Below, in pieces: positions 32,468 through 57,194 of a DNA stretch of 57,194 nt. Each line of letters starts with the position of its first letter. Position 1 is the first letter of the stretch. Under the pieces are notes generated by a model that saw nothing but the letters and a program-made list of their open reading frames with translations, made no database searches and was not told where the DNA came from. Origin of the DNA: Girardia tigrina (Eukaryota); NCBI GenBank assembly GCA_001938485.1, contig MQRK01244678.1:1-57194 (forward strand), read 5' to 3'. Both the position numbers and the translations under genes were made by a program.

Positions 32468-33206
32468 TAGTAATAATCTTGCTCATCTTAACTGCGACAT
32501 GTTTTGTTTTTTTAACCTAATAAATCGTTCACTTAAAATAATCTTTTTGCAATTTATTTCTTTTAAATCACTTTTAGTAAATAATTTATTTCAAATTGAA
32601 TACCTATTTTTTATTTGGAACATTATTAAAGTCTTACATTTTCAAATAGTTTGTAATCAAACTATTTTATTTCAAATTTTATTACAAATATTTCATTCCA
32701 AACTTATAAAGTTTATTTTGATTTACAAAAATGTTTTTATCAAATTTAATTACCATTTTTAATTTAAATTATTTTATAATAAATTTCCATTTTTTTATAA
32801 TAAAAATCTCTATTAACTTATTTTATTTTAATCGTAAAATTATTATATTTTAATGTGTGATATATTTTTTAATGTTTTTGAAATTTCTTTTTTAGATTTA
32901 ATTCAAAAATTTATGAGTTTACCAAAATCTTAACAATAATGAATAATTATAATTTTGAAATTCATAAATCTTTCTTAAATTCTTATATTCCGGATCCAAC
33001 ATTATGTATATTCATGCTGTCTTAATAACTAGTCGTTAATATCATATATTCCTTATCAAAATGACTTCTGTTTTATAATACACAAAAGAATTAATAGCTG
33101 AAATTGATGATTAACTGTTAAACTTTGTATCTTCTCTTATATTCAATAGTTCATTCTTGTTTTGTTTCAACTCAATATAAATTAACTTCATAAATTTCTA
33201 TTTTAG

Positions 33207-33564
33207 TCTTAGTACTCTTCGTGGATGGGAGCTCTTGCGTAATTGTCTAAATTATTTCGCTCCATCTCCAATGTTCCGACCATACCTAGAAGGTTACGTA
33301 TTACGACATCTTGATAATTCACACACAAACGAATGCCCTACTCCACCTGCTATTCAGCAAGCTGCTGAACAGACTCTTCATATTCTTAACCGACAGACAA
33401 ACGCCGCGGCTCGTATGGATCAGTACCAGTTTCAGCAACAACAGCAGCAGCAACAACAACAGATGATGATGATGGCTAATATGCAAACGATGTCTGGTCA
33501 AAAGAACCATTTACCAGTGCATTTATATGAATCTGGAGACAATTCAGACGATTCAGCTTCTCAA
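33207..33564 (+). CDS. arhgap39: ARHGAP39-like exon: MyTH4 end plus polyQ/polyM linker
   Basis: STLRGWELLRNCLNYFAPSPMFRPYLEGYVLRHLD; ttttag acceptor (phase 2) and caa|gtgagt donor (phase 0). Confidence 0.93.
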
Positions 33565-34809
33565 GTGAGTTCTTTTTGATATTAGGATTTACTATTTACG
33601 TCTTTTTTATTATTACAACAGTATTTTTTGTTGCATTAATTATTATTTTTAATTATTTCTGTAATTAATTTGACAAAATTATCTTGTTTATATTCATTAC
33701 TGACATTTATGTATGATATAATTGTCTTTTTAATGGAAATTTAAAAGCAATATTGACGCATTAGTTGAACAAAACATGTGGTTGGATCAGTCATTTTTAT
33801 ATACTTTTGCTATTACAGTGTAATCGAAGATATTTTGATAATTCTAGTAAATAATATAATGTTACATTATCTTTGATTTGATTACTTCTACCGATTGAAC
33901 ATAAATTCTCTACGCTATTAGTGCAGTCAAAATTAGCACATAGAAATTCTGTTTCGCTAGTGCTTTCTTTAGTGAAATGAATAATCTTTCAAATTTTCCA
34001 TTCGAGATTTTACAATATTTATGTTTCAGACTTACTTAGTCCTCGAATTTCTGTTTACAAAGTTGTCATTTGTCTTACAAAATGTTTTAACTATGTTAAT
34101 ACGCTTTCTTCCAAAGTAAAATTAATAAAATTGGTCATTTTTAGTCAAAAGATCATTGCGATAGGGAATAGCATTTTTATAGTCGAATGGTTAAAGGAAT
34201 TTCTAAATTAACTACATTCTTAAGACAATTGATTTTTTTCTTTGGTTTCTATATATATAAATAGTTGTTTGTTGTATTTGTCCCATTTGTGCATTCTTTG
34301 GGCGAGTTTCGTTAAATTAAATTAAATTAACTAAAAATTTAATGTAAGTTGCTCTGTTAAAATTAGTCACATTTAAAAGAATAGAAATAAATTATTCCAA
34401 TTTTGTTTAAGCTAAGTGAATATGTTTTTGCTATTAGTGGACTTCTTTTACTCGTTTTAAAATACCTTGGCCCTCAACTATTTCTTTTTTGGAAAAAGAA
34501 TTTACTGATACAATATTATTAACAACATTTACAAAATAGTAGAAATACATACAATAATATCAATTTCACACTCTTAAAACCTCAAGTAGAGACCCTTTTA
34601 TTTATGTTTGAAAGCATTATCAAATTCTCTTTGAATTTCGATCATTCTCATTTACACAGCGCGAATTGTCCAAAATCAAAGATCTCTCATAACAATCAAA
34701 TGAAACACTCAACATATTCGCACTGTTTTGAAAATCTTTGGAATGTCGTTATAAATAACAAAATGGCGATTGTTTAAATATTTTTGTCAAATATCGATAT
34801 TTCACTATT

Positions 34810-35095
34810 TTTCTATTCTTTTTATTAGCTTACTTTCTAAAAATTTAATAAATGATTATGTGAAAATTTGATCGAAAAATACTTTTTAAGGTCCCAAAAT
34901 GGGAAAAAAACGGAAAATTCGGATTTCCTGAACAATATTAATTGAAAAAGATCTACTTATAAATTATAAGTAGTTTATATTAATTTTTTATTGTTTTTTT
35001 ATTATTTTTTTAATTAAAACTTTGTTGGCAAAGTAGAATTCTGTCTGCATAAAGAATGGGCATAAAAAATTTAATTTTTTGATTTACTAGTTGTT
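34810..35095 (+). repeat. Interspersed repeat family B (HINE-like), internally deleted copy
   Basis: Shares ttttattagcttactttcta, aaatgattatgt.aaaatttgatcgaaaaa and gaacaatattaattg with the copies at 35.8-36.2 kb and 42.2-42.56 kb. Confidence 0.8.
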
Positions 35096-35807
35096 TTTGA
35101 ATTGAATCTATAGCTTTTGAAATTAAAAACTGGTTTTTTATTTGACAAATTCGGTTGGAGAGGTACTGTTGCTCGGAGGCAATTTTCGATTTTTGTTCTT
35201 GGATAAAACTATCGATATCAATACTCACATTCATAATATTTCAAAACAAACAAGAAATCCCTTAAATTCGTAATATTTATTAATTTACAACATTTTTGCA
35301 ACACAGTAAAACAACTAAAATTTAGAACTTTCCAATTCACAAAATAATTTTTTATCAATTGAGAATAATAATTGTTTTAGTTTTAAAAAAACTTTATGTT
35401 AATAAAAAATATCTTTTTTAATTTTAATTTGAAAATGTTTTATTTTAAACTCAAACAACACACTAATATTATTTTAAGTTTATTATATTTTTTAAAAAAT
35501 AACTTGAAATTTATTATGCTTTGGGGAGTCACCCATTACTCGGGAAAATACTTACACCATCTGAGAGAAAGCGAGAGGCTAGGATTTTGACTAAAGCCTC
35601 ATATGTAAGCTTCGTTTAATCATGTAATTTAGCTCATCGCTTGCTGTATCAAATAGATGATTTTATAACACAAAATAATTTCTTGCACTTTATATTTAAA
35701 GATTAATATTTAAAATTTTATAATTTTAAACTAATATAAATAAAATTTTATTTTATCAGTCATCAAATTAAAAGTGAGTATCGAAAATTAAGATAAACAA
35801 TAGGAAT

Positions 35808-36202
35808 TAAACTAGTAAATCAAAAAATTAATTTTTTTATGTTCATTATTTATGCAGTCAGTCTATTTTACCAACAAAGTCTTTAAAATTTAAAAAATTT
35901 TAATTAAAAAATACACATTCAAAATTAATATAAACTACTTATAATTTATAAGTAGATATTTTGCAATTAATATTGTTCGGGAACTCCGAATATTCCGTTT
36001 TTTTCAATTTTGGGATCTTAAACAGTTTTTTTCGATCAAATTTTTACATAATCATTTACTGTCATCGAGAATGAGTAAGTGTGCAAAGTTTGAAGAAAAT
36101 CGATTGAGGAAAAAGCCTTCAAAACAGGTTTCTAAATTCCATGGATATATATATATATATATATACCTATATAGAAAGTAAGCTAATAAAAAGAATGGAA
36201 AA
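35808..36202 (-). repeat. Interspersed repeat family B, inverted copy with (TA)n
   Basis: Reverse complement of 42205-42557 over ~350 bp. Confidence 0.85.
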
Positions 36203-37444
36203 ATAGTAAAAGTAGTCGAACAATTTCATACCCATACATTTTTTGGCTAACTAAATGTGACTTGAATCGGAAACAACGAATGTAGCTTTTTGTAGAAATT
36301 TGTCATATCTATATCATTTTCACATTATGCTATTATAAATATAATTTTGCTGTATCGATGAAATATTAATCTCACAAAGTTAAAAAAGAAAAACAATACG
36401 AAGAAGCTGAACAGTTAAATATTTCTGGATTAAAAGTCAAAAATAAAATGACACATGGGTTGTATTTTCTATTAATAATTATTGACGAAAACTTTAGTAG
36501 AAAAGTTATCACAAGTGATATCACCGCAAAGTAATAGTTGGCGGAAGCATGTCGTATATGTGATACCATCGGTTTGTAGTTATAATTAAGGTACAAATTT
36601 TGTGTCATCTATCATTGTAGTGTCAATAAATATTATATATTAATGTTAAATCTTTATTCATGATTTATTTTACGTTTAATGATTATGTTCAAAACCAAGA
36701 TTTTACAAGTTCTTTTCCAATTTTCTAATTATATTCAAACACCTAAGTAATGGAATTATTTTGATTGTTTTAGAGTACCTTCATTTGCACAAAAAAACCC
36801 TTGAAGATAAGAAAAAGTCTTCTCTTTGTATAAGAATCGCCTATTTGAACAAATTGAAATAAATGTCATTCAAATAAACTTTGATATTGTTATTTCTTCA
36901 TTTTTGACTACCTTTTTTACTACATTAACTATAGGAATTGATCATGCTTAGCGTAGAAACCGTAAAAAAGGCGTTATTTTATATAATATACCGTTTGATT
37001 TCGTATAATTCTGTGAGGGATAGCTTTTCACAAATCAGCTCCTTGAAAGTCAAAATATTTGTTATTGAAAACTAAAAATGTATTCAAATGATAATTATGA
37101 TTTAAATGCACAAAATTGTTAAATAGGAATGTTTTATAAAAAATGTACAAATTTTAATTTGTATGTTCAAACTCCAAGCTGTGTAACTTATTTTGCTCTA
37201 CTGGATTTATGTTTTTAAGTCCTAGCAAAGGAATGAAAAAAAGTTCTTTTTACGGGTAAAAATAATTTATTAAAGATGTGTCTTACATAAAAACGCCTGA
37301 GTTGTGTTTAAATAGTATACATAATGGTCGCACAATTCGAATAAAGCGTTCAGAGCCTAATGCTCGAGAGAAATTCAAATATTTCTCACAAAGGTTATTA
37401 AAGGATTTAGTACATGTATTTATGGTTTTCAAATAACATATTTA

Positions 37445-39154
37445 TAACATGCATTAAAAAAATTTTTTTAGATGTCTCAAATATTTTAATTGTTTTAACA
37501 TAATTCGAAAACGCTGATTTCAAATATGTACATGGAATATTTCTATCACATCAGAATTTTTCACAAATTCAATTTTAACATTTTTATTTTTTACTGATTT
37601 TAAACATTCTAGCTTCAAGATTATTTAAAAAATAATAATTAGTTAATTTTTTTACAAAAAATTTATAAAATGTTAAGTACAAAAGCATAAAACTTTAAAT
37701 TAAGGACAAAAACTTCTTCTTGATTTTCTCCAATATTTTTTCCCATTGATCTGCCCTGCTATCCCACTAACATAGAAAACATGGAAGCTTAGTATAGCCT
37801 CCTTGCTAGTAGAATTTGGCCTAATAGAATTCCAATTATTTTGAAATCACCACATATGCTCATCGTACATGATGTTTTGAAGAAGCACCACCATGTTGTC
37901 ATAAGTTTCTTTCAAATGAATAGAATATGCAATTGGCACAGATACATAAATATTTCCATTATACAAAAGAACTGCTTTGAGACTTCGTTTGGAAGAGTCA
38001 ATAAAAATCTCCATTCATTGGTATCATACATAACTCCCAACTCAGTAATCAATCCAGGTATATTTGAACAATAATCAAGGGAATCAACTTAAATTTCCTA
38101 AGTAGGGATAAAAATTTTATAAATTCTGCTTCACGATTTCTATACCATGAAAAAGATGTTTCAGGTTCTAGTACATTCTTAGTCTTTAAACGTGATCCCA
38201 GTAACTCTGATGAAATTTTTGATAAATTCAAATCTCGAACAAGGTTGTTTAATTCAGCCTGAGAAAATGCTCCTCTAGAATCTGAATTGCTAAGTGAAAA
38301 ATTGTCTTTATCAGTTTCAACAACATCGTCAGAATTTGATTAATCATTTGACAAAACTTCTGCAATGTCAATTGGTATCAGAACAGGAATGTCATCTCCA
38401 TGAGGTACTGGTCTCAATGCTGAAGGCAAATTAGGATATGATAAATCTTTTTTATTCTTGTTATTAAAGCCTTTGATATTTACCACGCAGAAGTAACAGT
38501 CGTCTGTGTAATTTGTGGGTTTACGCCAAATCATTGGAATTCCAAAACTTAAAGAAGTTTTCAAACCTCTGCTCCAACGTCTTAGTCCTTCTACAGATGT
38601 TCTGCTTAAAACATGAGGTGCCCATAGTTTAACTTGATCACCTAATTTTATTTTAAAATATGTATGATAAATTTTTTTCACAAATCCATTGATGGACTGC
38701 CTTTGCTTCTGATAAATATAACAAAATGAATTTGGAGAATTCAAACAAAATCTTCTGGAACTCGACCTAGTAGCCGTGTTAAATCAAATGAATTAAAATG
38801 AATACAAATTTCAATTAAATAATTAATTTATTTTAATTAAATGGGCAGGCCTAGATTTTGATGATATAAGCGATTTCATGTACATATGTGTGTGTCTGTA
38901 TGTATACAACATTTTCCATGTGAGTAATGAATATATACACAGATACATGCACATATATATTGGATTATATCATTGAAATATCGACTTTACCTGGATTATG
39001 GAATGTATTTCAGTTATATGATGTTTTAAAACATTTTTTTTGGAAAAAACTGCACGTGACAGAAAAAAATGGATTACATATTTGAAATCAGCACATTGAA
39101 ATCTATTAGAAACAAGTTGCATTTTTGAAAAATCTGATATCATGCATACCAGAG
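37445..39154 (-). mobile_element. Chapaev3-like DNA transposon, internally deleted
   Basis: NSPNSFCYI...KLGDQ.K.WAPHV...FGIPMIWRKPTNYTDDCYFC...YPNLPSALRPVPH, then LFIDSSKRSLKAVLL and GQQGGYTK. Subterminal IRs at 37511-37548 and 39055-39092. The family name is from recall. Confidence 0.72.
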
Positions 39155-39664
39155 TAATTTAATACATTGGTTCACTTTTTCGATAACAATCATATTTCAT
39201 AAGTAAGGTGTTTGAAAATTTCAAAATTTTACCCTTTAGGTAATTTCTTATGAATTAAATAATGTAAATTTAAATGTTCAGATATATTTATTTGTTTAAA
39301 TAATTTAATCTTTAGGGTAGCTATATTGTTGTTATTTTCTTATAATTATACTTTCGTATGTAAATAGTCGAAAATGTTGTCTTTCAAATCTGTAACAAAA
39401 TATTTTGTCTTCTTTCGTATTTTAGCAACAGATTTTTTTAATATTGAAAAACCTCAGTCCATTGAAAGCTTTTTTCAATAACTATTTCGATATTGACACT
39501 TGGATGGTGACTTTTGCAGACAAAATCTATTCGAATGATGACTGATTTTTTTGAATTGATCAAAGATAATTTCTTATGGTTCATAAACATTTAAACCGCA
39601 AAATAGTGTTTTAAAATTTTGTGTGTTTGATTAGAGTATATATTTTATAAGTTATTAATGTACT

Positions 39665-40995
39665 AAGAAAAGATGCCTCTAATGAAGAAGAGGATGCCTT
39701 CACACAAATACCGGAGTCAATTAGTTATGACGGTAGAAGATTTAGTATTGGGCTACCGTGGAAAATTAAAATTGAGGTTTCCTAAAACTTTCAAAATGGC
39801 AGAGAGGAAATTGAAATCATTCCAAAAATCGTTCAAGAAAAGACCAAAAGATGGCACAAAGATAATATCTGGGAAAGGTATATATCAAAGAAATTTGTGA
39901 CGTGGATGAAAATACTTCACAGTTGCTTCTACCGCACATTCTTGTGATCGAAATGACATAAACATCAATATAATATTTACGGTATTTAAGTGATTTTCAT
40001 CATACATGTCCAAAATTACAAAATGAGTTGATCGACTTTCATTTTAGGATGCGAAAGAACAAATTTGTGTTTCTTGGAGACCTCAAAAAAATTTCTCTAA
40101 GTGAAAGTCTTTAAGGAGGATCTACATTTTTTATGGACGAAAGAGTGAGACTGAAAAATGAAAATCAGGTGGTTGAATTAGGTATTGCTAGGCTTGAACT
40201 TGTCTCCTTCTTTTTGCGCATTATATCTTCAACGTAAACGCAGACAGTTTTGCAGACAGTTTTTGGACACTAAAAATTGTCGAGGAATGATTGTATTAAC
40301 TACTCCTGTTAAATCCATTTCTATTCCACTGTAGGAACTTGTCACTCCATGTTTAGCGGTGAAGGTTGGACAAAGAGTAACAAATAATTTCTAAGTCAGT
40401 GCTGAACAATCAATATACTCTGTAGATAGTATGCATGTGTTATACTGGATACGAAAATGTAGCAAGGTATTCAAAACGTTATTTGCAACTAGTTGAAAAG
40501 TAACGGAATGTGATGGAGAGGACCAGAATTTATGAGAGAAATTGAATATTGTCTGAAGCAACCAGTGATGTCTAGTAAGCCAAAGAATGATGAACGAAGA
40601 AATGGGTTCTTATTGGTGACAGTAACGTTATCAGCAGTGCTAGAGGAGTTTGAACAGTCAAGGTGCTATATCTTACAAGGAGAGGCGGAATTGGAGATTC
40701 CGTGCAATGAAGCTGAGAGTCTAAAGGGTGAAGTGCTGAAGACCTCGATTTGGGAAAAACAAATGTAGATTGTTTAGCAGCAAACGAAATTCAATGGAAG
40801 AACAATGGGAAAAAATTTATTTCAGAAGATCAGCTGAAACACATTCAGAAAGAGAATAATTTCTTGGAAAAAAGAGTTCTGTGTAGTGAGCATCCTAATT
40901 CAAAAGGCCAATTCAATGTGTGCCTCGAATGGTTTATTAAGATCGAACTGCAGGATTGTAATTACAGACTTGATGCCATGGTAGACAAAAATTAA
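39665..40995 (+). mobile_element. Highly degenerate BEL/Pao LTR retrotransposon pol relic
   Basis: RFSIGLPWK, P.TF.MAERKL.S, GDLKK and ARLELV (PRLEL-like) occur in BEL/Pao order across frames. Confidence 0.7.
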
Positions 40996-41014
40996 CAATT
41001 GTATTTGAAAATCT

Positions 41015-41112
41015 TTTTGTGTCCCCCTAAAGAAGTTTCCATGGCCCCACAATTTTACTTTTTTTCCACGGCCCCCTTAAAATACGTTGTGGCCCACTTG
41101 GGGCCATTTGGC
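41015..41112 (+). mobile_element. Probable hAT terminal fragment with GGCCCC repeats
   Basis: Repeated ggcccc motifs ending cccgttgataaaccttg, resembling hAT ends. Confidence 0.4.
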
Positions 41113-41804
41113 TCCCGTTGATAAACCTTGATCTAACCACTTAAGTATGTGTAGTAAAAATTTGTGGGTTTGTTGTTTCTCCATTTGTAACTGCTTTTAA
41201 CAAAGCTACTGTTTTTTTAACAGCAATAAATGCTAGAAGCAGTAGATTTTTTGTATAAGTGAGTTTGAGTTGAACCTTGGAACTTTAGGATGATGTTCGA
41301 TTCAGCACTTATAAATGAAGTTGTCGTTTGACTGTTTTGTTCAAGCAATTTGCTTTATTTTTTTAAACATTTTTGGCTCAAGAAATTGTAATTAAACGGA
41401 CTGATATTTGTGTGTTTTCTTTTTCAACTTTAAAAGTTTTATCTATCTAATTTCCTACGAAAAATGGATGAAATATATGGATCCCTAGCTCTCCACAGTT
41501 TCCAGATTTCAGTTCATGTTGATGTATACATATAGAATCAAAAATTAAATTGGCTGGTTTCTATTTCCTAACACTGCAATAGTTATAGACTCTAATTAGT
41601 AATAACAATAGTAAATTTTAAGCTGCTTCAATGAAACTGTTATCATGTTATTAATAAATTAAAAATTATTTTAATCACTAATTATTTATTGTCTACATTC
41701 TAATACTCAAGTTCTCTTTATACACCAACGCTTAGCTAGATAGAGTATTCCAGATTTTCATTCTTAAGACCAGCCAAAATTTATCTTAAGACTTTAGGTA
41801 ATGA

Positions 41805-42195
41805 TAGAACCTCATCCATTTCAAAAGATGAGTTTTCTGTTTTACAAAAGGGTTTTGATTCACATTACGAACGACAGTTTTGTGAATCTCTACTAATAAG
41901 ACACTACAACCCATCAATTAACATTCAGAATGAGCAAAGTAAGGTTATTTCAATACTTAAAATTTGTAATTAAAATATTTTTTGCCATTATTACCCAAAA
42001 ATATTTTCATAAATAATAATGTTTAATTTTTTCGTCACCTTTTAAAGTAAATTATATTTATTAAAATTGTGTTAAAATTGTATTATTCAAACAATTCAAT
42101 ATTCATTTACTAAACATCCGAAAATTGCTGATGATGATGTATGTAAACATCGAAACATGACCACTAGTTGTATAAAAAAAGCTTTAATCAAATTA
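41805..42195 (+). mobile_element. 3' end of a Penelope-like element (family B relative)
   Basis: 41810-41970 is homologous to 19557-19715 (TSSISKDEFS...ESLLIRHYNPSINIQ) and is followed by a hammerhead-bearing pLTR. Confidence 0.78.
42125..42165 (+). ncRNA. Minimal hammerhead motif, core intact, cleavage triplet GUC>GAC
   Basis: CTGATGA-t-GATGT-atgtaa-ACATC-GAAA-catgac. Confidence 0.75.
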
Positions 42196-42204
42196 TATTT
42201 TCGA

Positions 42205-42557
42205 AATATATATATATATATATATATATCCATGGAATTTAGAAACCTCTTTGTGAAGGCCTTTTACTCAATCGATTTTCTCCAAACTTTGTACACTTAC
42301 TCATTCTCGATGACAATAAATGATTATGTAAAAATTTGATCGAAAAAAGTCCAAAAATGGGAAAAAAACGGAATATTCGGAGTTCCCGAACAATATTAAT
42401 TGCAAGATATCTACTTATAATGTTATAAGTAGTTTATATTAATTTTTAATGTGTTTTTTAATTATTTTTTTTAAATTTTAAAAACTTTGTTAGTAAAATA
42501 GAGTTCTTCTGCATAAAGAATGGATATAAAAAAATTAATTTTTTGATTTACTAGTTT
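42205..42557 (+). repeat. Interspersed repeat family B, third copy
   Basis: (TA)n-ccatggaatttagaaacc...ttttgatttactagtt. Confidence 0.85.
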
Positions 42558-42982
42558 ATTTTTGTGATCTCTTATAAAAAATTAAATTATGAGATCGCAC
42601 AAATAAAAAGTCGTATAAAAAACAGGTTTGGATGTAAAGAAAAAATAAATAATAAAATTTACGATATAGGAAAAGTCAAGGAAAAGTTTTAAAGTGTGTA
42701 AAACTTTGAATCAAATTTACATTTAATTTAATAAAGGGATATTATAATATTACCGGTGTCATGAAAAATTGGACAAGAATTATTTTCAATAATGATTATA
42801 ATAAATTTCTGTGAAAGTAATTTTGCAATTTCAATTTTAGTTTATGTTTTCTGCTCAAAATTTGTTCGTTTTTGCCAAAAATAAATAATTATATTTATTT
42901 AAATTGGTGAAAAAAATGCTATTTTTAAATGGATAATCAGTAAAAATGATACTATTTGTTAAATGAAGTATTTGAATTCTAG

Positions 42983-43723
42983 AGATGTTTGCCACTCAGT
43001 TCCCATTTCGGGTTTACATTGGACGAAATAATGCGATCTCAGTACCTCAAATTTCCTGAGCGTGAATTGCCTTGGATTTTAGTGACATTATGTGAAGAAA
43101 TTTTAAATCGCAACGGTGATCAAGCGGAGGGTATTTTTCGTGTTGCTGCTGATAGTTCAGCAGTCCAAGCCATGTGCACAGTACTTGATCTGTGTGAAAA
43201 TCTTTCCGATCATCCTCTAACTAGTGGAGATCGTAGTCCACATACCCCGGCTTGTTGTTTGAAACGCTGGCTCGATTCTCTTTTAGAACCCCTTGTACCT
43301 CCGTCTTTATGTAGTATTGGACAAGCAGGACGTGCTCGTAGTCCTTTAGAAGTTTACCAGTGTTTAACAAGACTCCATCAAGCCACTTTAATGTATCTCG
43401 TGCGATTCTTGCAATTGCTTTCAGTGGATGATAACGTACGATTAAATCGAATGGGGCCCTGGAACTTAGCGGTCGCTCTCGCCCCGAATGTGTTCCAATT
43501 AGATCCAGGCAGCAGCGAATACGGTGGATCACGGTCCTCGAAACGCGCTGGTGGCAGTAGCGGTCTTGACACTTGTCGATCTGATAACAGTGCAAATGAC
43601 AGTTCCGGTAGCAGTTCCAGGGGTGGTACAACATCCGCCGATGATTCTTTCAGGCCTCATGTTAACTTTCTCTACCAGTTAATCGTCGGACTCGATACGA
43701 GCCCCCTAAGCGGAGCCATTTAG
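42983..43723 (+). CDS. arhgap39: ARHGAP39-like terminal exon: RhoGAP domain
   Basis: FGFTLDEIM..Q...FPERELPWI...L.EEIL..NGDQAEGIFRV (Arg finger) and NRM...NLAVALAPN. The ttctag acceptor at 42982 is phase 0; TAG stop at 43723. Confidence 0.93.
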   Translation, partial: RCLPLSSHFGFTLDEIMRSQYLKFPERELPWILVTLCEEILNRNGDQAEGIFRVAADSSAVQAMCTVLDLCENLSDHPLTSGDRSPHTPACCLKRWLDSLLEPLVPPSLCSIGQAGRARSPLEVYQCLTRLHQATLMYLVRFLQLLSVDDNVRLNRMGPWNLAVALAPNVFQLDPGSSEYGGSRSSKRAGGSSGLDTCRSDNSANDSSGSSSRGGTTSADDSFRPHVNFLYQLIVGLDTSPLSGAI

Positions 43724-45255
43724 TCGATATCCTCTATCCCCCCATTGATTCTGTTGTTATGTCTGAAAAATATATAATATCTAGATTTCGAACCGGTTTT
43801 CTTATGGCAACTGTGTTAATTTTCCTGCATTATATATTTGATTTTATTTACACATTGATTTTTTGTTGGTCTTAAAATAATAAACATTATTGATTATTAT
43901 TTCTCCTCAATTGTTTCATGGATCAAAGAAAACGTCAATTCTTTTCGTCAGTTGGAAATCCGAGTCATTGTACATTATTGTAAATCGTGTAGATATCAAG
44001 ATATCTCTGGTCTCATCATCTCTTTTCTGTTTTCTCTGCAATTGGAAATCGCTCTTATCATTTATTATTATTATTATTATTGCTATTATTATTCGGAAAT
44101 AGAAATTTCAAGCCATTTCAACGAAAAAAAAAACGGGCATATATTTCGGGCCGAGTTGTGTGAATGTGACTGTAGTTAGATAGCTTTGTTTCATTATTAC
44201 TATTATTATAATATAGAAATTTATATTCTGATCGATATTAATAGACATTTATTGGTTTACAGTGTGATTGTTATCTGGCTTTTGTTTCATTAAATTATTC
44301 AGTATACATTGATTTATTGATAAAATTTTAATATCAGACTTGGCTTTATTATTATTATTCGTATTCTCTGATTTTTCAATAATAATTATCGGCTATTTTA
44401 TTTCTGTTTTTCTTTTGTTATAATTTTGATATAGTAAATAGCATTATAAATCAATAACGATATACATAGTATTATTACATGTGTGTATTAGTATTTGCGT
44501 GTGTGTGTTTGTATGTGAGTGTGTGTGTCTTTGTGGCATCAGAATGAAGTGTCTTAATTTTCAATTGAAAACCATTTGTTGGAGAGATTGCTATGTGATT
44601 TACAGAAGTTTTTTGTTAAGGCTGTAATAGAACATGTATGGTGGTTACTATGATCAATTAAAAATAATTCAGTAATTTTTAGTGAAAAAAAAGTTGTTGA
44701 AAAATTTCAGTTTTTTTCGTGATGGAAAAAAGATTTGAAGTTTTATTTTAATCATTGTTTTGTTATCTTTAGTAAATTATATAAATTTTTTAATGAAGCA
44801 TTGTTATGAAACATTAAAATCCATATTATATATAAAATCATGGTATCAGCTTCATACGAAACATGGAAAAGATTTTGATTTGCGTTAACATGACCCTGTA
44901 TTGTCCGTGCTAGTTGCGATTATGTTATCTTTGACATTAGAATTTGGAGTAATAATCGTCAAAATTTTTATGTTTTAAAATCTATTAAATACTTAATGTT
45001 TTATAATTTTAAATTGGCCTTTTTATAAATTTTATATGTGGTTTTGGGATTTTTTGAATTATAATATTAAATTTAAATAAATTATTTAAAAAATATTTAT
45101 TATCTCATAAAATTATTTTGTGAGATGAATTTTTAACTAACTTTATAAATCGAATTATGCTGTGTAAACATTAGGTAATGGTATTTGAAAAACACGATAC
45201 TTAGGCAACTCGTTCAATGCGTTCCATTTATATTCAATGCCAATAATGATAAGTA

Positions 45256-46439: not shown

Positions 46440-47597
46440 ATGTTTATTTACAATATTTGTTCTGCGTAACAAATGTTTCTGGGTTTTCAGCAAAGATTAA
46501 GAAATTGATTGATTTAAAAATTTGATTATCCCAATGTACCATCGGAAATGAAACCTATATCCCATGACAATTCTTTTTCTGTGTCAAAAGCTCCAGACAC
46601 CTTAAACTTTGTGGATGATGAATAATTAAACAAAGCTGCAGCGGGAAACATGGAAAGGTTTATGATGTTAATTATAGAAATTATGAACCTTCTACCTTAA
46701 GAATTCCTCATTTAAATAATCAATCTGATTTAAATGATTTAGTCAACGACTTGAGATTATCAGAGAGGTGCTTAATTATTAGATTTAAGGTTGCAATAAT
46801 GGAATCTTCTCTCAACTGGAACAAAAATTTCAGTTTTCCGTAATCGTCAAGAGAATTTAATCCGAGAACTTTGCATACTCGGACAGTTGCAATATATGTT
46901 TCTGCACAGATATTGATCGTTTCATTTTTGTACTTGATTGTTAGTCCAATCCGAACGAATGGAGATTATTAATGAACACATCAAAATTCAGTCTGAAAGC
47001 TGTTTTGCTTCACAATGGAAATTTTTTATACATCAGTTCAAGTAGCACATGATGTTCAAATGAAAGAAACCTATGACAATACAAAAATGATATTAAATTG
47101 CATAAAATACAGTAATTATAACTGTAGCATTTGTACGGATTTGAAAATGGTTGCAATTTTTCTGGGACTACAGCTAGGATATACCAAATACTGCTTCCTA
47201 ATTTACGAATGCGACAGTCGAGTAAGGACTTCACTTTTTTTTATGAAAAGACCAACCTCAGTGTTAAAGTTTTGTGTCAGGACAGAAGAACATCTCACAA
47301 GAACCACTCAGTTATCACAAAAAAATTATTTATCATCACTTCATATCAAACTCGGGCTTAGGATAAACTTTGTTAAAGCAATGAATAACGATGGAGAAGG
47401 ATTAAAAAATCTGAGAAGGCTTTTTCACGTATCATTAATGTCAAAATTAAAGAAAGAATTTTTGTTAGACAAGATATTATGAAAGTTATTAGTGACCAGC
47501 AGTTTGAATGACTGTTACAATGAGTCAAATTAATGTATGAAATGCGTTCAAAGACTCAAATTCAGACCTTCCTCGGTAAAAAAGGCTCCAGACTATG
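46440..47597 (+). pseudogene. Second, diverged Chapaev3-like transposase relic
   Basis: YPNVPS.MKP..H, QSDLNDLV.DL.LS, EWRL...SK.SLKAVLLHNGN, DLKMVAIFLGLQLGYTKYC and LHIKLGL..NFVKAM. It ends at FLG..KAPDYV where the LTR-like unit begins. Confidence 0.75.
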
Positions 47598-50515
47598 TGT
47601 CACGACCCTCTTGTTTATAACGATTTTAAATGCTCAGAGCCCCCAGTGGCTATTATGGGTCAGCCACAACCCTAACTTAGATTATGTCTTGCTCACAGTT
47701 CATTTTAGTATTTACCTATATAGGGGTCGGACGCCTCTTCTCGCTCGACATCTGTCTAACAGTGTCAAGTCTGAAGGGCCTGAGAGTTCTAATAAAGACG
47801 GGATGGGCTATGGGCCCCCCACCTAGCAGAGCGTCGTTCAGGGATGATAAAGTTATTATTGTTTCTGTATTTTCGTTTCTGTTATTAAAGGTTGAATTAT
47901 TACTAAAAGGAAATAGATTTGTCAGCAGTCATTATCTCGGTAGAAGAGAAGCGTATTTGAAAAACTTAAACAAAAGATCATCGACGGATTGTTAAACTTA
48001 TTACCTCCTGAAAAACTATCGATAATTCGTCCGGTATTGTAACAGCCTTAGATAGTCGACAACAGCTCTGTTACTCACACTTCATGCTGTTAACGCAAAA
48101 TGACTTAAAACATTAACTCAAAATCCATCGAGCGAAATTTATCATCGCCACGTTATTAGCATAGTCAAAATATTTATTGTTGAGTTATTATCAATATTCA
48201 GATTACTAAATTCAGATTATTAAAATTACGAACTATTAAAATCTGGAATTCCAAAAATTACTAAATTCATTCACACCTTATTATCATGATATTTCGGTTT
48301 ATCATTTGACATATCAATATCATTTATAATATTACTATAATACCTATAATGGTATCTTCAAATCACTATTCTCGATATCATCATTTAACGCAAGTCTACA
48401 GTTGCGAATTTACTTATTTCGATTTTATCCCAAATGTTTACCAAATAATATTCAATAATATTTAAAATATTCACTAAATGATATTCACTAAAATTTCATT
48501 AGATAAATTTCAGGGTAAAAGAATTCAATGATAAAACCAATTATCTATTATTCGGTTTCTACTTTATTTGTCTTAAAAGTCCCAATTCCATTTCTACCGT
48601 TGGGCACATTTTCGATTTTAATAAAAAGTTAAGATTATTGGGACAAAAACTTTTAAATGAAATAGCTGTGCGGATCTGTCCACAGAACAGGTAATTCATC
48701 CTAATCAACTTGCCTTGCTTCACCCATTTTTAATTTTACATTCAATATTAAATACAAATATTCATATTCAGTTGGCGGTATTTGCTTGATATGTTCTTAA
48801 ACTCGCAATAAATAACCTTTCGCTATATCAGTTCACGAATTATAGCTTCAACTTCCTATTTATGTTAATCAATTATAATAGAAACATAGCTCGTCATTCT
48901 ATAGCGCTCTAGATATCTAATTTGAAATAGTTATTTAGTAAATTTACTCTTAAATATGTAACTTAATCACCGTGATCAACTCATAACACTAATAAAGTGA
49001 CAACTAAAATTATAACTTAAATTATATTTACAAAGAAAATTGTAGCGTTTTTATAGACTCTTCTTTAAACGCTTAGTCGTTCGACACGGGCGAACTCGCG
49101 ATGTCGCGTCATCGGGAAACAACTCGTTGCGACTCTCTTGAAGAAACGACTCGAGTGACACTGAAGTCACCTCTACGATGATCAGGTCCGTGTAGTTCCC
49201 GACATTTTTCCATTGTGCGTTTGAACGCAGATTCTCTCGGGGCATAAGTTATGAAGACAGCGGCGGCGGCGGGGACGCGAAAGGTGGCTAAAGGGTTAAA
49301 TAAGGCGGTAAAAGTACAAGCGTTCACGCCTGTAGCGACCTCAACCTAGGTTGTATAAATCGGCCTCTTAAATAAAACGCCTAGATTGTAAAAAAAAGAA
49401 AAAATTAAACACATTAAAAATTAATCAAAAATTAAAACGCATGGATCTCGCTAAAATACATTTATTGCGCATAATAAAATAGTTACCAAAGTACGCTAAG
49501 AATTACATTGAAACTGTAGTCACCGGAAGTCCATGCGGTGAGTCACTCCGAAGTAACACTGAGTTGGATTTTTTCGCTCGTCGGCGCGTCGATCGGGTCG
49601 AAACGCCTGTGGGTTGTTCGTCGGAGGTGGAATACTTCGTTCGGTATCGCTTGTTCTCTTTCGTCAATTACGGCATCGAGTCCCTGTCTAGTTGTACGTC
49701 TCCTAGTCGGGGTTCCTTTTCTTCGTAGTCGTCTGGGTTTTAGCGTCGAATTCTGGTCAAACGTTCCGAATATTTTTCTTTTTTGAAAAATTTTGCGCTT
49801 TTAATTTATGTTGAAAACTTGTGCGGTTTTTTCTGAATGAATGTTATATTTATAACATTCATCATCTCGCTTATCGGGGTGTGTTTTCATCGTGGCCATT
49901 TCTGGTTGGCCAACAACGATGATTTCTTGTTTTGATTTGCCGGTTCAGGTTGTTGTTAGGCCGTGTGTCTGACTCCAGACAGTGACTGCTTTGTCACAAG
50001 GTTCTTTATCACCGATGACTATTCATCGCGTGATGTTGTTTTTCTTTGTGGGCCTGACTCATGGTAAGTTTGTTTACTGTTCTTTGTCTTACTTAATTGG
50101 CCTTTGTCCTTTAATTAATTTATATACCTTTACAGAGGTATAACTTTTCAGGGGAACGCGTCAGTATTTTGCAGGTGACCTTCAGGGATTCCTCGTCTTC
50201 GGGGCTACAAGTGAAGGGTCTGTTGACCTTGTAATGTTAACGGCTCGCCTTGGAGATAACTTTGTCATTTTCTGTCTGGTTTTTTAATTCATTATTTTCT
50301 TTTAGGGTTGGTAACTTTTCAGGAGAATACCTCACGACCTGGTGAGTTTTCTTCAAGGGTTGGCCCTACAACGAGTTATACGTGGAGGGTCGATTGTTTG
50401 ATTCCTTTCGACGAGTAAGTTTTTATTTGATGTTGTCTGATTTTCCTCCATATTATATTTACAGCTCTACCGCGGTGTCTGCGACTTCTGCTCAAACCGT
50501 GAGGGGTTCGGGACA
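47598..50515 (-). mobile_element. Candidate very long (~2.9 kb) LTR of a Gypsy-type element
   Basis: Ends TGTCACGACCCTC ... GAGGGGTTCGGGACA (TGT..ACA with short imperfect IR). It cuts the Chapaev relic, has a CpG-rich core and a minus-strand TATAAAA at ~49049-49055. No TSD found. Confidence 0.55.
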
Positions 50516-50797
50516 ATAATATGACTTTTATTGAATATATGTATTACATAATAATATTTTCTTCTTTTTCCCTTTGGTTATTTTTGTTTTATGGTATTTA
50601 TAAGGTGTTTTTCCTTTTTGGCGGTGACTTAATCAACAGCGGACCGCAAGATATGGGTAGCTGTTTGAACATATGATCCTAGCATCATTTACACTAGATT
50701 CCATTCTCTCAATATTCTTCTCCTAGGTCTATAATATTTGATATTTTAATTCTACATTATTTACTAATACTTTGGTAATCATGGCTATTGTTTAATA

Positions 50798-52595
50798 CCG
50801 TGCGATTCATAAGTCGTCGTCTCAAGATATGGAACTATACTGCGATGTAATGTAAAACTTTTTGAATATGAAATAAATGTATTACAACATGGTTTTTTAC
50901 GCAGTACAACTTGAAGACATGAAAAGAAAAAGGTTTTACAATAATTGTTCAAAATGTTCACCATTTTTCTGCAAACACAGATTGCATCGCTCCACAAAAT
51001 TCGTGTACCATTTTCGAATGATGCGGTGATCAATGTCTGACATCACTCTAGAAATGGCGTCTTGTAGTTCGTCGAGGTTCAGATAGTTATTTTCGATGGC
51101 GTAAACTCGATCTTTCACGTAACTCCATAGCCAGAAGTCAGGTATCGTCAAATTGGGAGACTGAGGTGGCCATTCCTGGGGTCCTCTACGACCAATCCAT
51201 CTTTGTGGGAAATGTTCATCCAGCCACGTTCGCGCTGCAATGCTGAAATGCGGGGATGCGCCATCATGTTGATACCAGTGTTGCATGTTATCCCCAACAA
51301 AAGGCAGCAACTTTTGATTCAGAACGTCGACATATCGTACCTGGTTCATTGTTTCATGGATAATACTGAAAGTAATTCCAAAGTCGTAGGAAACAGCTAG
51401 CCAAACAGTTAATCCCGGCGATTTCATAGGCACACGAATCAAACAATGTTCATTCTCTTCAGAATAATAAAAAAGATTATGCTTTCGCACATGACCATTA
51501 AGGTAAAACGATGCTTCATCAGAAAAAATAATTCTTCTGCAAAATTGGTGCCATTTTCGTTGATTATTCAAGAACAAAATTCAATTCTTCGATATGGAAC
51601 ATCTTCTTGTTGAAAAGAAAACTTGAAAGGCTTTACCTTTTCTTGCTTGAGGTAATGATGAACAGAACTCTGCGAAGTACCAAGGACACGTGCAACCCGT
51701 CGTTGATTTGCAGTATCGTTTTCTTTCACATACTGAACCATACTTTCCTTCATGTGTTCATCAGATGGTCTTCCTGATCGCGGTTTTGATGACAAATTCC
51801 CCGTTTCTTCGAATTTCTTCTTCCAATGCTGAACCGTTGTTCTCAGTGGCGGTTCACGTTTGAAACGCTCTTTAAATATTTGACACGCTTTTGTGCAGCT
51901 TTCATAAACGATTGCATGACTAGTGATAAAAACTTTATCTTTGATAGAAAATTCGACATTTCCACTTGTTTCAGCACTTGTACTGGCAGTTGGCGCATTT
52001 GAATAAAAGTGAAAGTACACAAACTAATATCAGACATTTAAAATTTCAATTTCATAGATATTGAATAACCGGATAATCAATCAATAGGCCAGTTTAAATC
52101 GCTAAGTTTAAATAAAATTGGAATAATTAAAGTGATCATAAGATTATAGAGACGAATAAAGAACCTTAATACTAATTTTATATATTTTATGAAAATAAAA
52201 AATATATTAAATACAAAAATATATAAACCATTTATCATCAGAATGTAGAAAGTTTAAAAAAGAAAACATAAAACAATCAAAGGAATATAATTGAATATGA
52301 AAGTCTGCAGAAAACCATAGCTTTTCTTTGTTTTGTAAGAGAAAAGGTTGAGTCAGACATCGATTACCGCATCATTCGAAAATGCTACACAAATTTTGTG
52401 GAGCGATGCAATCTGTGTTTGCAGAAAAATGGTGAACATTTTGAACAATTATTGTAAAACCTTTTTCTTTTCATGTCTTCAAGTTGTACTGCGTAAAAAA
52501 CCATGTTGTAATACATTTATTTCATATTCAAAAAGTTTTACATTACATCGCAGTATAGTTCCATATCTTGAGACGACGACTTATGAATCGCACGG
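50798..52595 (-). mobile_element. DD41D (rosa/long-TIR type) Tc1/mariner element
   Basis: TA-CCGTGCGATTCATAAGTCGTCG... TIRs of ~243 bp (50798-51040 vs 52352-52595), each flanked by TA. Confidence 0.93.
50936..52020 (-). pseudogene. DD41D transposase with a frameshift at ~51575; start uncertain
   Basis: KKFEETG....PRSGRP, IIFSDEASF, QHDGASPH and WPPQSPNLTIPDFWLWSYVK. There are 41 residues between the second and third Asp. Confidence 0.9.
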
Positions 52596-53028
52596 TATAT
52601 TTCCTCTACTGGATCTTCTTCCAATGCATTGTCATTTGGATGTTCATTTCCTGGGAAGCGATTCTTCATATTCATTATTAAGAACATTTAAACAAGTCAT
52701 GTTTGAATCTTTATTGCAATTACATTTAGAGTCATTAAAACTCTCAGAAGGACTTTCATCGTTTGTCATCGTTCTAATTGCTTTTCTTATTTCTGTTTTT
52801 AATCATGATTATTCGAACAATTTTTCTAAATTATTTTTTTAAATATTTGAACCCTAAAAAATATTAATTAAAAATATTAATTTTTATCATTTTCAATAAA
52901 TCCCAAAATAATAAAAATGTCATCAAATTATTAAAAATGCATTTAATTTAAATTTTACTAAAAATTATTAAACTTGATTTTAATTGTTTAATTAAAATTA
53001 TGAACTTATAAAATTATTATTTTAATTA

Positions 53029-53175
53029 TGTTCGAATAGTCAATCACTTTAAATTTAATAAAAAATACCCATTTCTATCTGGGTAGGAGAATCAACATTC
53101 TAAATTCAATATACTTAAATCAACATTCCGCATCCATACATTTACACATTCAAACAATTTAAAATATTCCTCACA
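53029..53175 (-). repeat. Putative short 3' LTR of the Gypsy element
   Basis: PPT AAACAGAGGGGGA directly precedes TGTGAGG on the minus strand; candidate end TTCGAACA. Confidence 0.55.
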
Positions 53176-56100
53176 TCCCCCTCTGTTTAAATGGCTTTAG
53201 CCATTCTACATTTCTGATCAAGATCCTGCCGTCATCTAGTTGTATCTCATAACTTCTTCCATGTCTTTGCTTTATAATTTTAGCTGGTCCCATATAACGG
53301 TCATCATCTTTTGATGGGTTAACTTTCTTTATCAAGACTTTATCTCTGACCTGAAATATTCGTTTTGTTTCAATTATATTTTTATTTGCTTTTTCTCGAA
53401 TTTTTCCTTCTGCTGTAGTTTTCCACCAATGTCTTAGTTTTCTTCCGAAGATTATCTCGGCTGGAGATATTCCAGTTGTTGCTTGGATTGTACCGTTTAA
53501 CATGAATTCTATTTCTGCCAACATTTCTACCCAATCTCTATGCATTTCATCCTTTAATCGTAAATTTATGGCGTCTCTTATTGTTCTGAATTGTCTTTCT
53601 ATCTTAGAAAGACTATTTCAATAGACTATCTCCGAATTAAATCTTTTCGTCGTTTCTTTAAAGAGTGCTGATTCAAAATTTTTCCCGCTATCAACGTGTA
53701 TCTCCTTTGGTGGTCCGAATTTCCAAATCCATTTATCCAATAGTACCTTCCGTGTAGTCTTCTCGTCTTGGTGTGCCACTGGTGTCAAGCTGATGTACCT
53801 ACTAAATTGATCGATTATTGCTAAAATGTATTGGTATCCATTCATAGTCCTTCTGAATGGTCCGCAAAAGTCCATGTAAATTTTTTGAAATGGTTCGTCG
53901 GCAGATTGTTTAATGTGTTTCTCTTTCGTTTTTGCCGTCATCGTTTTCCTTTTCTGACAGTTTGCGCAAATTTGTACGATGTTCTTTATTTGTTGTCTCA
54001 TTTCATACATATCGAAGTCATCTTTTATGTAATTATAAACTTTCTTACTTTCTGCGTGGCATAATATTTTATGTATATCTTCTATAAAGTCTGTTCTCTT
54101 CTTCCGAGGGATCCAATATTTGTTATCTCTTGTCGTCAAGATATTGTTTTTTAGAAGCCATTCTTTTGTCTTTCCCATTCTAATATTTTCTTTAATCTGT
54201 TCTATTTCTTTATCATTCGTCTGCCAAATGAACTCTTCTGAATCTTCAGTTAAGGCAGGGATTCTAGTTTTAACTTTTTCTTTTTTAGCGTCATCGTGCA
54301 TTGTCTGACATTGTACACATATTTCATATGTATTTCTTGACATTGCGTCTACATTAGTGTGTTTTTCGCCCTTGCGGTATTCCATCCTCATGTCTAGTCC
54401 ACTAAGGAAGTTTATCCAAGTTTGGAAATGTGCAGTTATTGGGTTCTTCGTTGTCATCTTGAATGTGATGGCCTTATGGTCCATTCTAAGTAGAAACTTC
54501 TTTCCGTATAAGAAATGTTTGAAGTGTTGGGTAAAGTAATAGATAAAGTAATAATTCTTTTCTTGTAATACAGTATCCCAGATCGTGTTTGTTCATCTTG
54601 TGGGATCCATATGCAATTACTCTTTCCCTTCCGTATACATCCTTCTGTGTCAGTACTGCCCCGATTGTATCAAAACTGGCATCTGTATCCAGTATAAACT
54701 CCTTTTCGAAATCTGGATATGCTAGTATCGGTGTTTTTGTCATTTTATCTTTTAATGTCTGAAATGCTTCGTCACATTCCTTTGTCCATGTCAATTTCCT
54801 ATCTTTATTTTTTCCACATAGCCCTCCAGTATTTTTGAATATTTTGCATAATCCTTCAAAAATTTTCTATAATAGTTCGTTAGCCCCAAGAAACTTTTTA
54901 AATGTTTAATGCATGAAGGATTTTGAAATTTGTCGATTGCTTCAATTTTCTTTTAATCCGTTTCTATACCATCTTTGCTCACGACATATCCTAAAAATTT
55001 TGTCTTTTCTACCATGAATTGACACTTTTCAGGGTTTATCCGAAAGCCCGATTCTTTAATCTTTTGAAATATGTGTTCGACTCATGTAAAATGTTCTTCT
55101 TTGTCTTTTGCAAAGATTGGAATATCGTCCAGGTATAAAACTGCTTCTTTCCAGTTTAATTCTCCTAACACTCTTGTCATTAGTTCTTGAAATGTAACTG
55201 GGGCAGCTGCAATTCCGAATGGCATTCTTTTAAAACAATATTGGCCGTTCTTTGTCGAAAATGCAGATTTTAATTTTGAATCGTTCTCCAATTCAACTTG
55301 ATGATATGCACTCCCCAAGTCGATCGTGCTGAAGTATTTCGCTCAATTTAATGTATTTAGCATTTCATCTACATTTGGCATTGGAAACGCTGGTCTAATT
55401 GTGACTTTATTTAATTGTCGAAAATCAACACATACTCGGATATCCTGTTTGTGTTTTTTCCATACGCATACTAGCGGAAAATTCCACGGCGAATTGCATA
55501 TTTCAATGATATCATTTTCCTCATAGTTCTTGATAATATCATCTAGTTTTTTCCTCAAAGTTTTTTGGTTTTCGGTATGGTTTTACCAATATTGGTTCTC
55601 CTTGTGTTTCAATTTTATGCTTAGTTAGTGTGGTCTTCCCTATATCCCATTTATCCGCCATAAATATCGTTTTAATATTCTATTAGTAATTTCATTAATG
55701 GTTCATCTATCTTATCTGCGTATATTTCCCTTAATCTTTTAAGTCTGTCCCCATCAGTTAAAGTATCGCGTATTACCAGCACTATTTCGTTGTATCGTGT
55801 TTCTTTCTTTAATTTTATGCTAAATTTATTTAAAAAATCTGTCCACTGTTTTCTGTATTCTTTCAATCTTAATGTTTAGTTGTACTATTCTGTAATTTAC
55901 TAGTTCCGAATCGTTAGCACAGTGTATATGTCTTTTTATCTCCTTTATTTTGATATATTCCATATTTTTGAGTATGTCTATTTTAATTACATTGAATCGT
56001 GCTCCCGTAACCAATAGACATCGTACTTTTTCATTCTTTATTTGAAATTCTATACTAGGTCTCCCTTTCAGTTCTTCGTATTCTATTTTAAACTTTGATA

Positions 56101-56677
56101 TTTTCATTATCTCTGTTCTTCTTTCTTCATCTTTTTCTGTGATCAAACTTTCCCATTTCTCATTGTGTATTTCGTTTTCACCATCTAATATACACAATTC
56201 CTGAGGAATATGTTCAACAGCATCCCATACACAACAAATGTCGTCATACAAACAATCATTCATACAGTCAAACATACACATACATTCGTTTCTTAGTGAA
56301 GTGCATTGATCACTTCTCCCTGTGACCGTGCCTCCTCGTTTCCCTGTTCGTCTCTGAAATTTTTCTTGTTTGTAATATTTTCTCTTCTTGTTAGCCTTCC
56401 TCTTTTATTCGATCTTTCCGACATTATTTCCCACTCGTCATCGAAATCTTCTAATTCTGCTACTTTGTCTCTTCTATTCGTATATCCCATCCGACCTCTG
56501 TACTGTGTGTTTGTGTATTCTTTTCGTTCATTTCTTCTTTTCATTGTATCTCCTCTTCCAGATTGTTCGCCTTCTCTAAATCTGTTTGGATTTTCATAAC
56601 ATTGTCTTTTTACATGCCCTTTCTTATTACAATGGTTACATTTAACATTTTGACATTCCCGTCTCACATGTCCTTCT
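53171..56677 (-). mobile_element. Ty3/Gypsy gag-pol, frameshifted
   Basis: CCHC knuckle CNHCNKKGHVKRQC, protease LLVTGA (D>V), RT (SPWNFPL, RVCVDFRQLN, MPFG, YLDD), RNase H (LDTDAS), integrase (H..LCH, C..CQ, MDFCGP, IIDQFSRY) and YMGPAKI, in Gypsy order. Confidence 0.95.
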
Positions 56678-57194
56678 TGTTACGACCACGATTTGAAGGA
56701 AACCCTCCTTCACAACCCCCATCCTGTACGCCCGAGATCATTGGAGAAAGTTTTGAGGACAGTCTAACTCGACTGTCCTCGGTTAAGTTTAAATTNNNNN
56801 NNNNNNNNNNNNNNNNNNNNNNNNNNNNNNNNNNNNNNNNNNNNNNNNNNNNNNNNNNNNNNNNNNNNNNNNNNNNNNNNNNNNNNNNNNNNNNNNNNNN
56901 NNNNNNNNNNNNNNNNNNNNNNNNNNNNNNNNNNNNNNNNNNTTACTTAAAAGAATTTCCCCGAGATAGTGGGTGGCCGACCTACGATGGGAATAGAAAG
57001 ATAAGAAAAGATAAAACAAGATAAAGAGCAGTCTTACCCATAAACCTGCCAGGAAGGTGCATCCTGGCGTCCTTGTTTTTGATTTGAAATTTCCGTGCGA
57101 AAGTGCACTCTGGCGCCTTTTTGGTCAGCTGAAAATCAAAGGTATAAATACCAATGATTTCCAGCACGCAATTTTACTCCTTCTTTTCTTATTC
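56678..57194. mobile_element. Probable LTR end of another element inserted into the Gypsy gag
   Basis: gag homology stops at TGTTACGACCACG, similar to the TGTCACGACCC terminus at 47598. A GC-richer hairpin-containing sequence follows. Confidence 0.5.

Follow-up and report, generated by a model that had tools for sequence, protein, structure and literature searches.

A putative spliced antisense non-coding unit inside the LTR of a Burro-like Gypsy element of Girardia tigrina

Analysis of a 57,194-nucleotide stretch of the Girardia tigrina genome (assembly GCA_001938485.1, contig MQRK01244678.1, positions 1 to 57,194 of the forward strand; hereafter the window) showed a solo LTR whose predicted U3 carries a chain of short introns running antisense to the element. 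Splicing at two of these antisense-oriented GT-AG introns was found in RNA from some copies of the LTR. The chain is likely a selected, self-contained spliced antisense non-coding unit acting in cis on the LTR promoter, a function that we infer. The same LTR also holds a small ORF on the element sense strand, in its predicted U5.

The LTR spans 3054 bp (47598..50651, minus strand). Homology between copies ended abruptly at ~50651 and at 47598, and a 4-bp target duplication was present on both flanks (47594-47597 and 50652-50655), which is the reason for calling the window copy a solo LTR; the last two bases of its end carry one change. A script found a 4- or 6-bp duplication in 14 of the 19 LTR spans extracted with TG...CA ends, one of the 14 (L064) spanning a nested arrangement. 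Copies L040 and L064 share a primer-site-like motif beyond the 47598 end, which we take to be a tRNA-Pro site, and past the 50651 end lies an internal region common to many copies, where the terminus has a short purine run; the element sense is therefore the minus strand of the window. The identity and orientation of 47598-50651 as the LTR of a Burro-like Gypsy element follow, and the first-pass annotation, which had proposed an LTR from the letters only, is borne out in that target duplication, primer-site-like motif and purine-tract side were all located. It had proposed a search for paired copies around gag-pol: an internal region was found beside the LTR, and no paired-LTR copy was present in the six contigs examined of this fragmented assembly. 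A search with 49480-50600 gave 1296 first-look candidates in the genome, of which 40 were scored, mostly at 78-89% identity, and LTR copies number at least in the hundreds genome-wide.

Other features of the window were also identified. A host MyTH4 and RhoGAP gene, presumably ARHGAP39-like, lies at 33181-33564 and 42983-44704 on the plus strand and is spliced across a 9418-nt intron in RNA, its RNA contig ending at 44704, 2.9 kb before the LTR. A Tc1/mariner element at about 50797-52598 is a separate insertion; its inverted repeats of 247 nt match at 98%, and its transposase frame, on the minus strand, is broken. A broken Gypsy gag-pol of another family at 53171-56679 (minus strand) is likewise a separate insertion (7554 first-look candidates, 40 scored, all at least 90% identical); it was rejected as the internal region of the window LTR, since 0 of 10 of its loci matched the LTR.

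The internal region of the LTR's own family showed the domain order capsid with zinc knuckle, ubiquitin-like domain, mononegavirus-type fusion protein, protease (PR), dUTPase, reverse transcriptase (RT), RNase H (RH), integrase (IN) and a long 3' ORF. Pfam matches in L128, L130, L133 and L241 gave the order PR-RT-RH-IN with an env-like fusion protein between gag and pol, and the ubiquitin/SUMO-like domain and the dUTPase between PR and RT were weak but repeated matches (E about 1e-3 to 1e-4). In contig C218898 the distance from capsid to 3' LTR was at least 17 kb, possibly with insertions (a Burro-like internal region is about 20-25 kb). Burro and GYPSM1 are giant Gypsy-like elements of planarians and, in the available part of their description, share with these elements a Gag with CCHC knuckle, the ubiquitin-like domain, a multi-kb LTR, the mononegavirus-type fusion protein between gag and pol and the dUTPase between protease and RT (PMC6431247). 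The earlier suggestion of a Burro-like giant LTR agrees with this internal layout. A scan of 38 locus ORFs, a part of those in these broken copies, gave no match at E≤0.01 to the BIR, BCL2, MATH and ankyrin motifs of Burro1-4/GYPSM1. Long coding sequence follows the integrase at L133:468-5715 and L087:2030-2680, with a hydrophobic segment just before the 3' LTR and no significant Pfam match, and an ORF with an asparaginase N-terminal Pfam match, which may be a host gene or cargo, was found ~6.5 kb from an LTR copy (L084:6476-7345, minus strand). Genome-wide, 2210 first-look candidates for ubiquitin/SUMO-like domains were found, many in long frames, which suggests that mobile elements are wide spreaders of these domains.

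Within the LTR, a TATA box at 49844..49856 (minus strand) recurs across subfamilies and is the predicted sense promoter of the element, with a start predicted near 49826. A CCAAT-like box at 49902..49911 also recurs, as a pair in the majority of diverged subfamilies; of 75 distinct segments, 59 have a donor-like motif after it, which the window copy lacks. An AATAAA at 49461..49466 (minus strand), about 360-410 nt downstream of the TATA box in many copies, is the predicted sense poly(A) signal, which would place the R/U5 border near 49440. From the recurrence of these three motifs the U3 was predicted at ~50651-49827, the R at ~49826-49440 and the U5 at 1.8 kb. The intron chain is thereby predicted to lie in the U3, directly upstream of the predicted promoter and pointing away from the TATA box. 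The promoter had previously been placed at a minus-strand TATA at ~49050; this motif is private to the window copy, being absent from the closest copies L062 and L066, and the conserved TATA is the one at 49844-49856. The CpG-rich block that had been read as divergent promoters is a protein-coding ORF of the sense strand (49245-49051). A plus-strand TATA at ~49353 was considered as a promoter and rejected, as it is also private to the window copy. Across all subfamilies no part of the LTR is as well conserved as the U5 end (47598-47850), which is rich in GC, apparently does not code for protein and is possibly a packaging or priming structure.

Read on the plus strand, the unit opens with one or more predicted first exons (49870..50063). 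A 72-nt GT-AG intron follows (50064..50135), with the donor kept in 33 of 34 and the acceptor in 32 of 36 copies, and then a 120-nt exon, module 1 (50136..50255), whose length is almost invariant across subfamilies. The next intron of 50 nt (50256..50305) has a mutated donor in the window copy, with GT kept in 31/35 and AG in 25/27 copies and no listed junction. It is followed by module 2 (50306..50414), a paralog of module 1 that ends at an earlier donor and holds a possible alternative donor at 50342, kept in 21 of 24 copies. A second 50-nt GT-AG intron (50415..50464; donor 22/24, acceptor 24/24) leads into the predicted terminal exon (50465..50560), which carries a poly(A)-signal-like motif at 50534-50543. 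These conservation counts are from an alignment of 45 non-redundant copy segments. In the exon before module 1 (49949-50063, plus strand), two small inverted repeats that look like hairpins were also seen by eye and recur in several subfamilies.

The eight splice motifs of the first-pass annotation are all present in the sequence. Their conservation held at 50064, 50135, 50305, 50342, 50415 and 50464 but not at 49948, kept in only 8 of 31 copies, nor at 49538, where the donor is kept in 12 of 12 copies, yet only the closest copies align; the latter site lies in R and is absent from diverged copies. The first intron that these two sites would form (49538-49948) was not supported, with no junction listed for either. 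The 72-nt and 50-nt introns that had been called clean are real, with junctions in RNA contigs from other copies, and the intron at 50256-50305 had been overlooked. In close copies the listed splice sites were not set apart from GT/AG pairs taken as controls, which were kept almost as well (median 0.87 over 126 controls, 30% of them at ≥0.95); the splice-site signal is from the comparison of diverged subfamilies, not from close copies. Substitution in close copies was 7.8-11.5% in the introns versus 15.5% in module 1, so the intron DNA may matter as DNA.

The proposed tandem duplication of the exons starting at 50136 and 50306 is real, and successive modules are spaced about 170-173 bp apart. 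Across subfamilies they are 120 or 121 nt long and align gap-free at 29-88% identity. The general plan comprises a CCAAT-box exon, an intron, an exon of ~110 nt, one to three modules of ~120 nt with introns of ~50 nt between them, and a terminal exon with the poly(A)-like motif. Six exons occur in one subfamily, and a unit has up to five mini-introns. Donor placement varies by subfamily (module positions 108, 116 and 120), and whole intron sequences differ among subfamilies, L092 having an upstream intron of unrelated sequence. Boundaries located through exon-internal anchors showed an acceptor in 102 of 120 and a donor in 104 of 120 modules, and a branch-like motif peaked 19-25 nt before the acceptor. 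Unanchored modules were left out, 62 of 182 in this boundary analysis and 49 of 182 in the consensus-fold and identity analysis. Copies L033, L090 and L093 are solo LTRs with internal deletions of 0.5-2.4 kb that retain both ends, some with the last module only.

Intron calls were nearly all on the antisense strand, in accordance with the earlier description of a multi-intron unit antisense to the element. A detector that was written after viewing the sequences called 151 antisense and 1 sense introns in 75 U3 ends against 4.2 in shuffled sequence, and 31 antisense and 0 sense in 16 dissimilar representatives against 0.7 shuffled. An antisense-only chain with at least two calls each was present in 12 of the 16 diverged representatives, and 51 flanks gave 13 calls on both strands together. 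In 29 LTR sequences, 82 strong donor motifs were antisense where 29 were expected, and 44 were sense where 34 were expected. Part of this strand asymmetry is expected, because the life cycle would purge sense-strand introns anyway. The calls were 48-80 nt long and fall within the short-intron peak of planarians, given as 45-85 bp in PMC13594981. Finally, the poly(A)-like motif was found in 64 of 75 LTR ends versus 17 of 75 on the other strand and 1 of 75 further upstream; AATATA is a proposed flatworm poly(A) signal (PMC4558846).

Splicing was examined in X1 and X2, two sets of assembled RNA contigs of this organism from one sample. They were accepted as RNA because the host MyTH4-RhoGAP gene is spliced in them from 33564 to 42983 (GT..AG, free of mismatches) and because depth is 0-2 in some unique intervals. 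Three X1 contigs skip predicted introns, two at the 50-nt intron (50415-50464) and one at the first, 72-nt intron. The first follows copy L079 as far as the 50-nt intron, another continues as the L078/L094 type, and the third is a near match to L108 across the first intron; the shorter side is 71 letters in the first, the only one of at least 31, and 25 and 29 letters in the other two junctions. All come from other copies and none from the window copy, whose middle donor is mutated, and no junction at 49538, 49948, 50305 or 50342 was listed among the RNA contigs. Genomic copies lacking the introns were absent among those examined (0/34, 0/25 and 0/24). Summed depth at the first intron, a poor measure, was 266-333 for unspliced contigs and 23.5 for the junction, and an excess of unspliced contigs is expected if sense RNA covers the U3. 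The contigs show neither strand nor start, so the junctions could stem from host read-through.

Tests of the spliced unit for coding capacity were negative, and the earlier remark that it has no convincing ORF holds. The modules had a pN/pS of 0.82-0.96 against a null of 0.82-0.85 and no codon periodicity (0.95/1.02/0.98), and in simulated spliced products the ORF beat shuffles in only 34 and 33 of 62, the 13 of 75 ends with fewer than two introns being left out. Four stop-free module translations gave no Pfam match at E≤10. A coding role of the modules was rejected on these results, although one of the module frames has marginally few stop codons (5, the other two frames having 19 each; P=0.065). 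For structure, Rfam searches of the window LTR and 17 loci gave weak matches only, none at the gathering score, which left a 5S-like resemblance of the unit without support. Fold energy had a mean z of about -0.5 over 27 modules, and the consensus fold was not significant, being equalled by 13 of 150 shuffles. Judged by its sequence, the spliced unit looks non-coding and unstructured. The description of it as a spliced lncRNA or micropeptide gene stands for the splicing and the lack of coding signal, but a micropeptide from the spliced unit is unsupported, and the peptide ORF of the LTR is separate and on the opposite strand.

This small ORF (49051..49245, minus strand) has an ATG start and encodes 64 aa in the window copy; across copies the predicted peptide is 50-85 aa long with a mode of 57 aa. 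Its pN/pS was 0.45 against 0.80 ± 0.09 (0 of 300 permutations; 16 medoids down to 42% nucleotide identity), and variation by codon position was 0.82/0.74/1.21, the third position being the most variable. For this test 11 of 44 hits that were truncated, shifted or had stops were dropped, which makes the zero-stop count circular. All 150 of the 150 scored candidates of a genome search matched. The peptide core has a stretch of branched hydrophobic residues and, after it, an acidic residue and serine, which may resemble a SUMO-interacting motif; a host SUMO search gave 150 ubiquitin-like matches, most alike in score, with no host SUMO identified among them. No homolog of the peptide was found in Pfam, Atlas or PDB, nor among 168 word-index candidates. 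Profile search gave one unnamed 60-aa metagenome protein as the only outside homolog, a second match being repetitive and judged spurious. The AlphaFold model was of low confidence (mean pLDDT 63.6) with one helix. The substitution pattern clearly shows purifying selection on the predicted protein, for which none of the databases searched gave a named homolog, and given the predicted LTR anatomy the ORF would be an upstream ORF of the genomic RNA. Standard annotation is likely to miss such a selected small protein.

The reading that we tentatively favour is that the U3 chain is a self-contained non-coding transcript whose transcription and splicing help to keep the adjacent sense promoter active. 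The antisense transcript would start at or near the TATA/CCAAT core promoter and end at the poly(A)-like motif, which lies some 60-130 nt in from the LTR end. Its introns would outlast reverse transcription, because the genomic RNA carries them backwards and cannot splice them. Exon sequence would be under weaker selection than the possession of introns and the spacing of modules, and the persistence, duplication and turnover of the introns suggest that splicing has stayed under selection. As neither coding nor folding left a signal, a cis effect on the neighbouring promoter would be the simplest benefit, possibly through splice-factor recruitment and open chromatin. Silencing pathways may, in addition, take the LTR for a host gene; in mammals, introns are reportedly known to allow escape from silencing. 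Splicing-stimulated enhancers are a precedent in the available text of PMC6884709. A wider version seems to us distinctly improbable: the LTR would be a two-gene regulatory cassette, in which a backwards multi-exon decoy gene in the U3, expanded by duplication of exon plus intron, mimics a host gene and shields the promoter from silencing, the 57-residue U5 peptide is the element's own anti-silencing or transactivating factor, and the whole is spread genome-wide by LTR copies.

The introns could instead be incidental to DNA function, the ~170-bp repeats serving as enhancer or nucleosome-spacing modules, perhaps from a piece of host gene captured backwards, with splicing arising from host read-through; this is rather unlikely. 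Tandem U3 repeats are typical of LTR enhancers, and the 170-173 bp spacing, the conserved intron sequence among close copies and the minority of spliced contigs all fit. It does not account for donor, branch-like motif, pyrimidine tract and AG being kept together across modules only 29-88% identical, for donor turnover and intron replacement among subfamilies, or for the conserved poly(A)-like motif at the end of the chain, and the four stop-free module translations had no Pfam match. Unlikely, too, is a trans role in which the spliced RNA acts as a brake on the element by pairing with the U3 or feeding small-RNA pathways. In LTR elements the genomic RNA has the U3 within its 3' end, so every exon of the unit is complementary to it there; fast module substitution would also fit subfamily-specific pairing. 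Regulatory antisense RNAs of retroelements are reviewed in the available parts of PMC7264820 and PMC10186651, and planarian transposon piRNAs are mostly antisense (PMC8532177). Pairing requires neither introns nor a fixed exon length, however, and neither Rfam at gathering level nor the consensus fold gave a structured RNA. A fast-evolving micropeptide encoded by the spliced unit is very improbable: the gap-free 120-nt exon, the stop-poor frame and ATG-started frames of up to 132 aa in single copies speak for it, but pN/pS equals the null without periodicity in a test that clearly detects the U5 ORF, module length is either 120 or 121 nt, a conserved start codon is lacking and spliced products have no ORF excess. 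The nearly fixed module length of 120 nt is not explained by the non-coding reading.

A lineage that keeps, duplicates and renews antisense mini-introns beside its promoter offers a test by nature of whether a promoter benefits in cis when a divergent non-coding RNA is spliced. Natural LTR variants with one to five introns are available for comparison, and the unit offers a testable route by which giant elements may stay active under PIWI control.

In comparison with known systems, the hbz transcript encodes a protein, and the antisense RNAs of BLV and HTLV-1 extend into the internal region. BLV AS1/AS2 and HTLV-1 hbz are spliced antisense RNAs tied to an LTR, as proposed here, those of BLV being non-coding in the available text of PMC10186651; in the present case the strand is taken from the GT-AG orientation, as the contigs are unstranded. 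Unlike these, the present unit has up to five mini-introns, is modular and has its predicted end inside the U3, so every solo LTR would carry the whole unit. ERV9/LTR12 likewise has antisense RNA of a U3 with CCAAT boxes, and there LTR RNA is reported to strengthen the LTR enhancer, but those RNAs are attributed to host read-through and are unspliced; LTRs usually lack splice sites according to the same review, as far as its accessible sections go (PMC11853044). Spliced enhancer-associated lncRNAs share conserved splice signals, GC-richer exons, no coding role and a proposed cis effect, but are mammalian host loci in the excerpted text (PMC6884709), whereas here the module is carried and duplicated by a mobile element. 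Antisense transcription units retained throughout a retrotransposon family are also known from Gypsy elements of plants (the antisense ORFs of Grande, RIRE2 and Retand) and from micropia (an antisense RNA); the ORFs of the plant elements are protein-coding and sit between pol and the 3' LTR (PMC7264820), and the present unit is inside the LTR and non-coding. Neither an LTR-internal antisense unit nor an LTR peptide, both predicted here, is described for Burro in the available portion of PMC6431247. A survey of literature in partial text, which covered sources other than the original Burro description and supplements, gave no multi-intron antisense unit inside a Gypsy U3 and no Burro LTR peptide. 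Overall, spliced antisense LTR RNAs are already known, and the multi-intron, modular layout predicted to be complete within the U3 is the new feature here.
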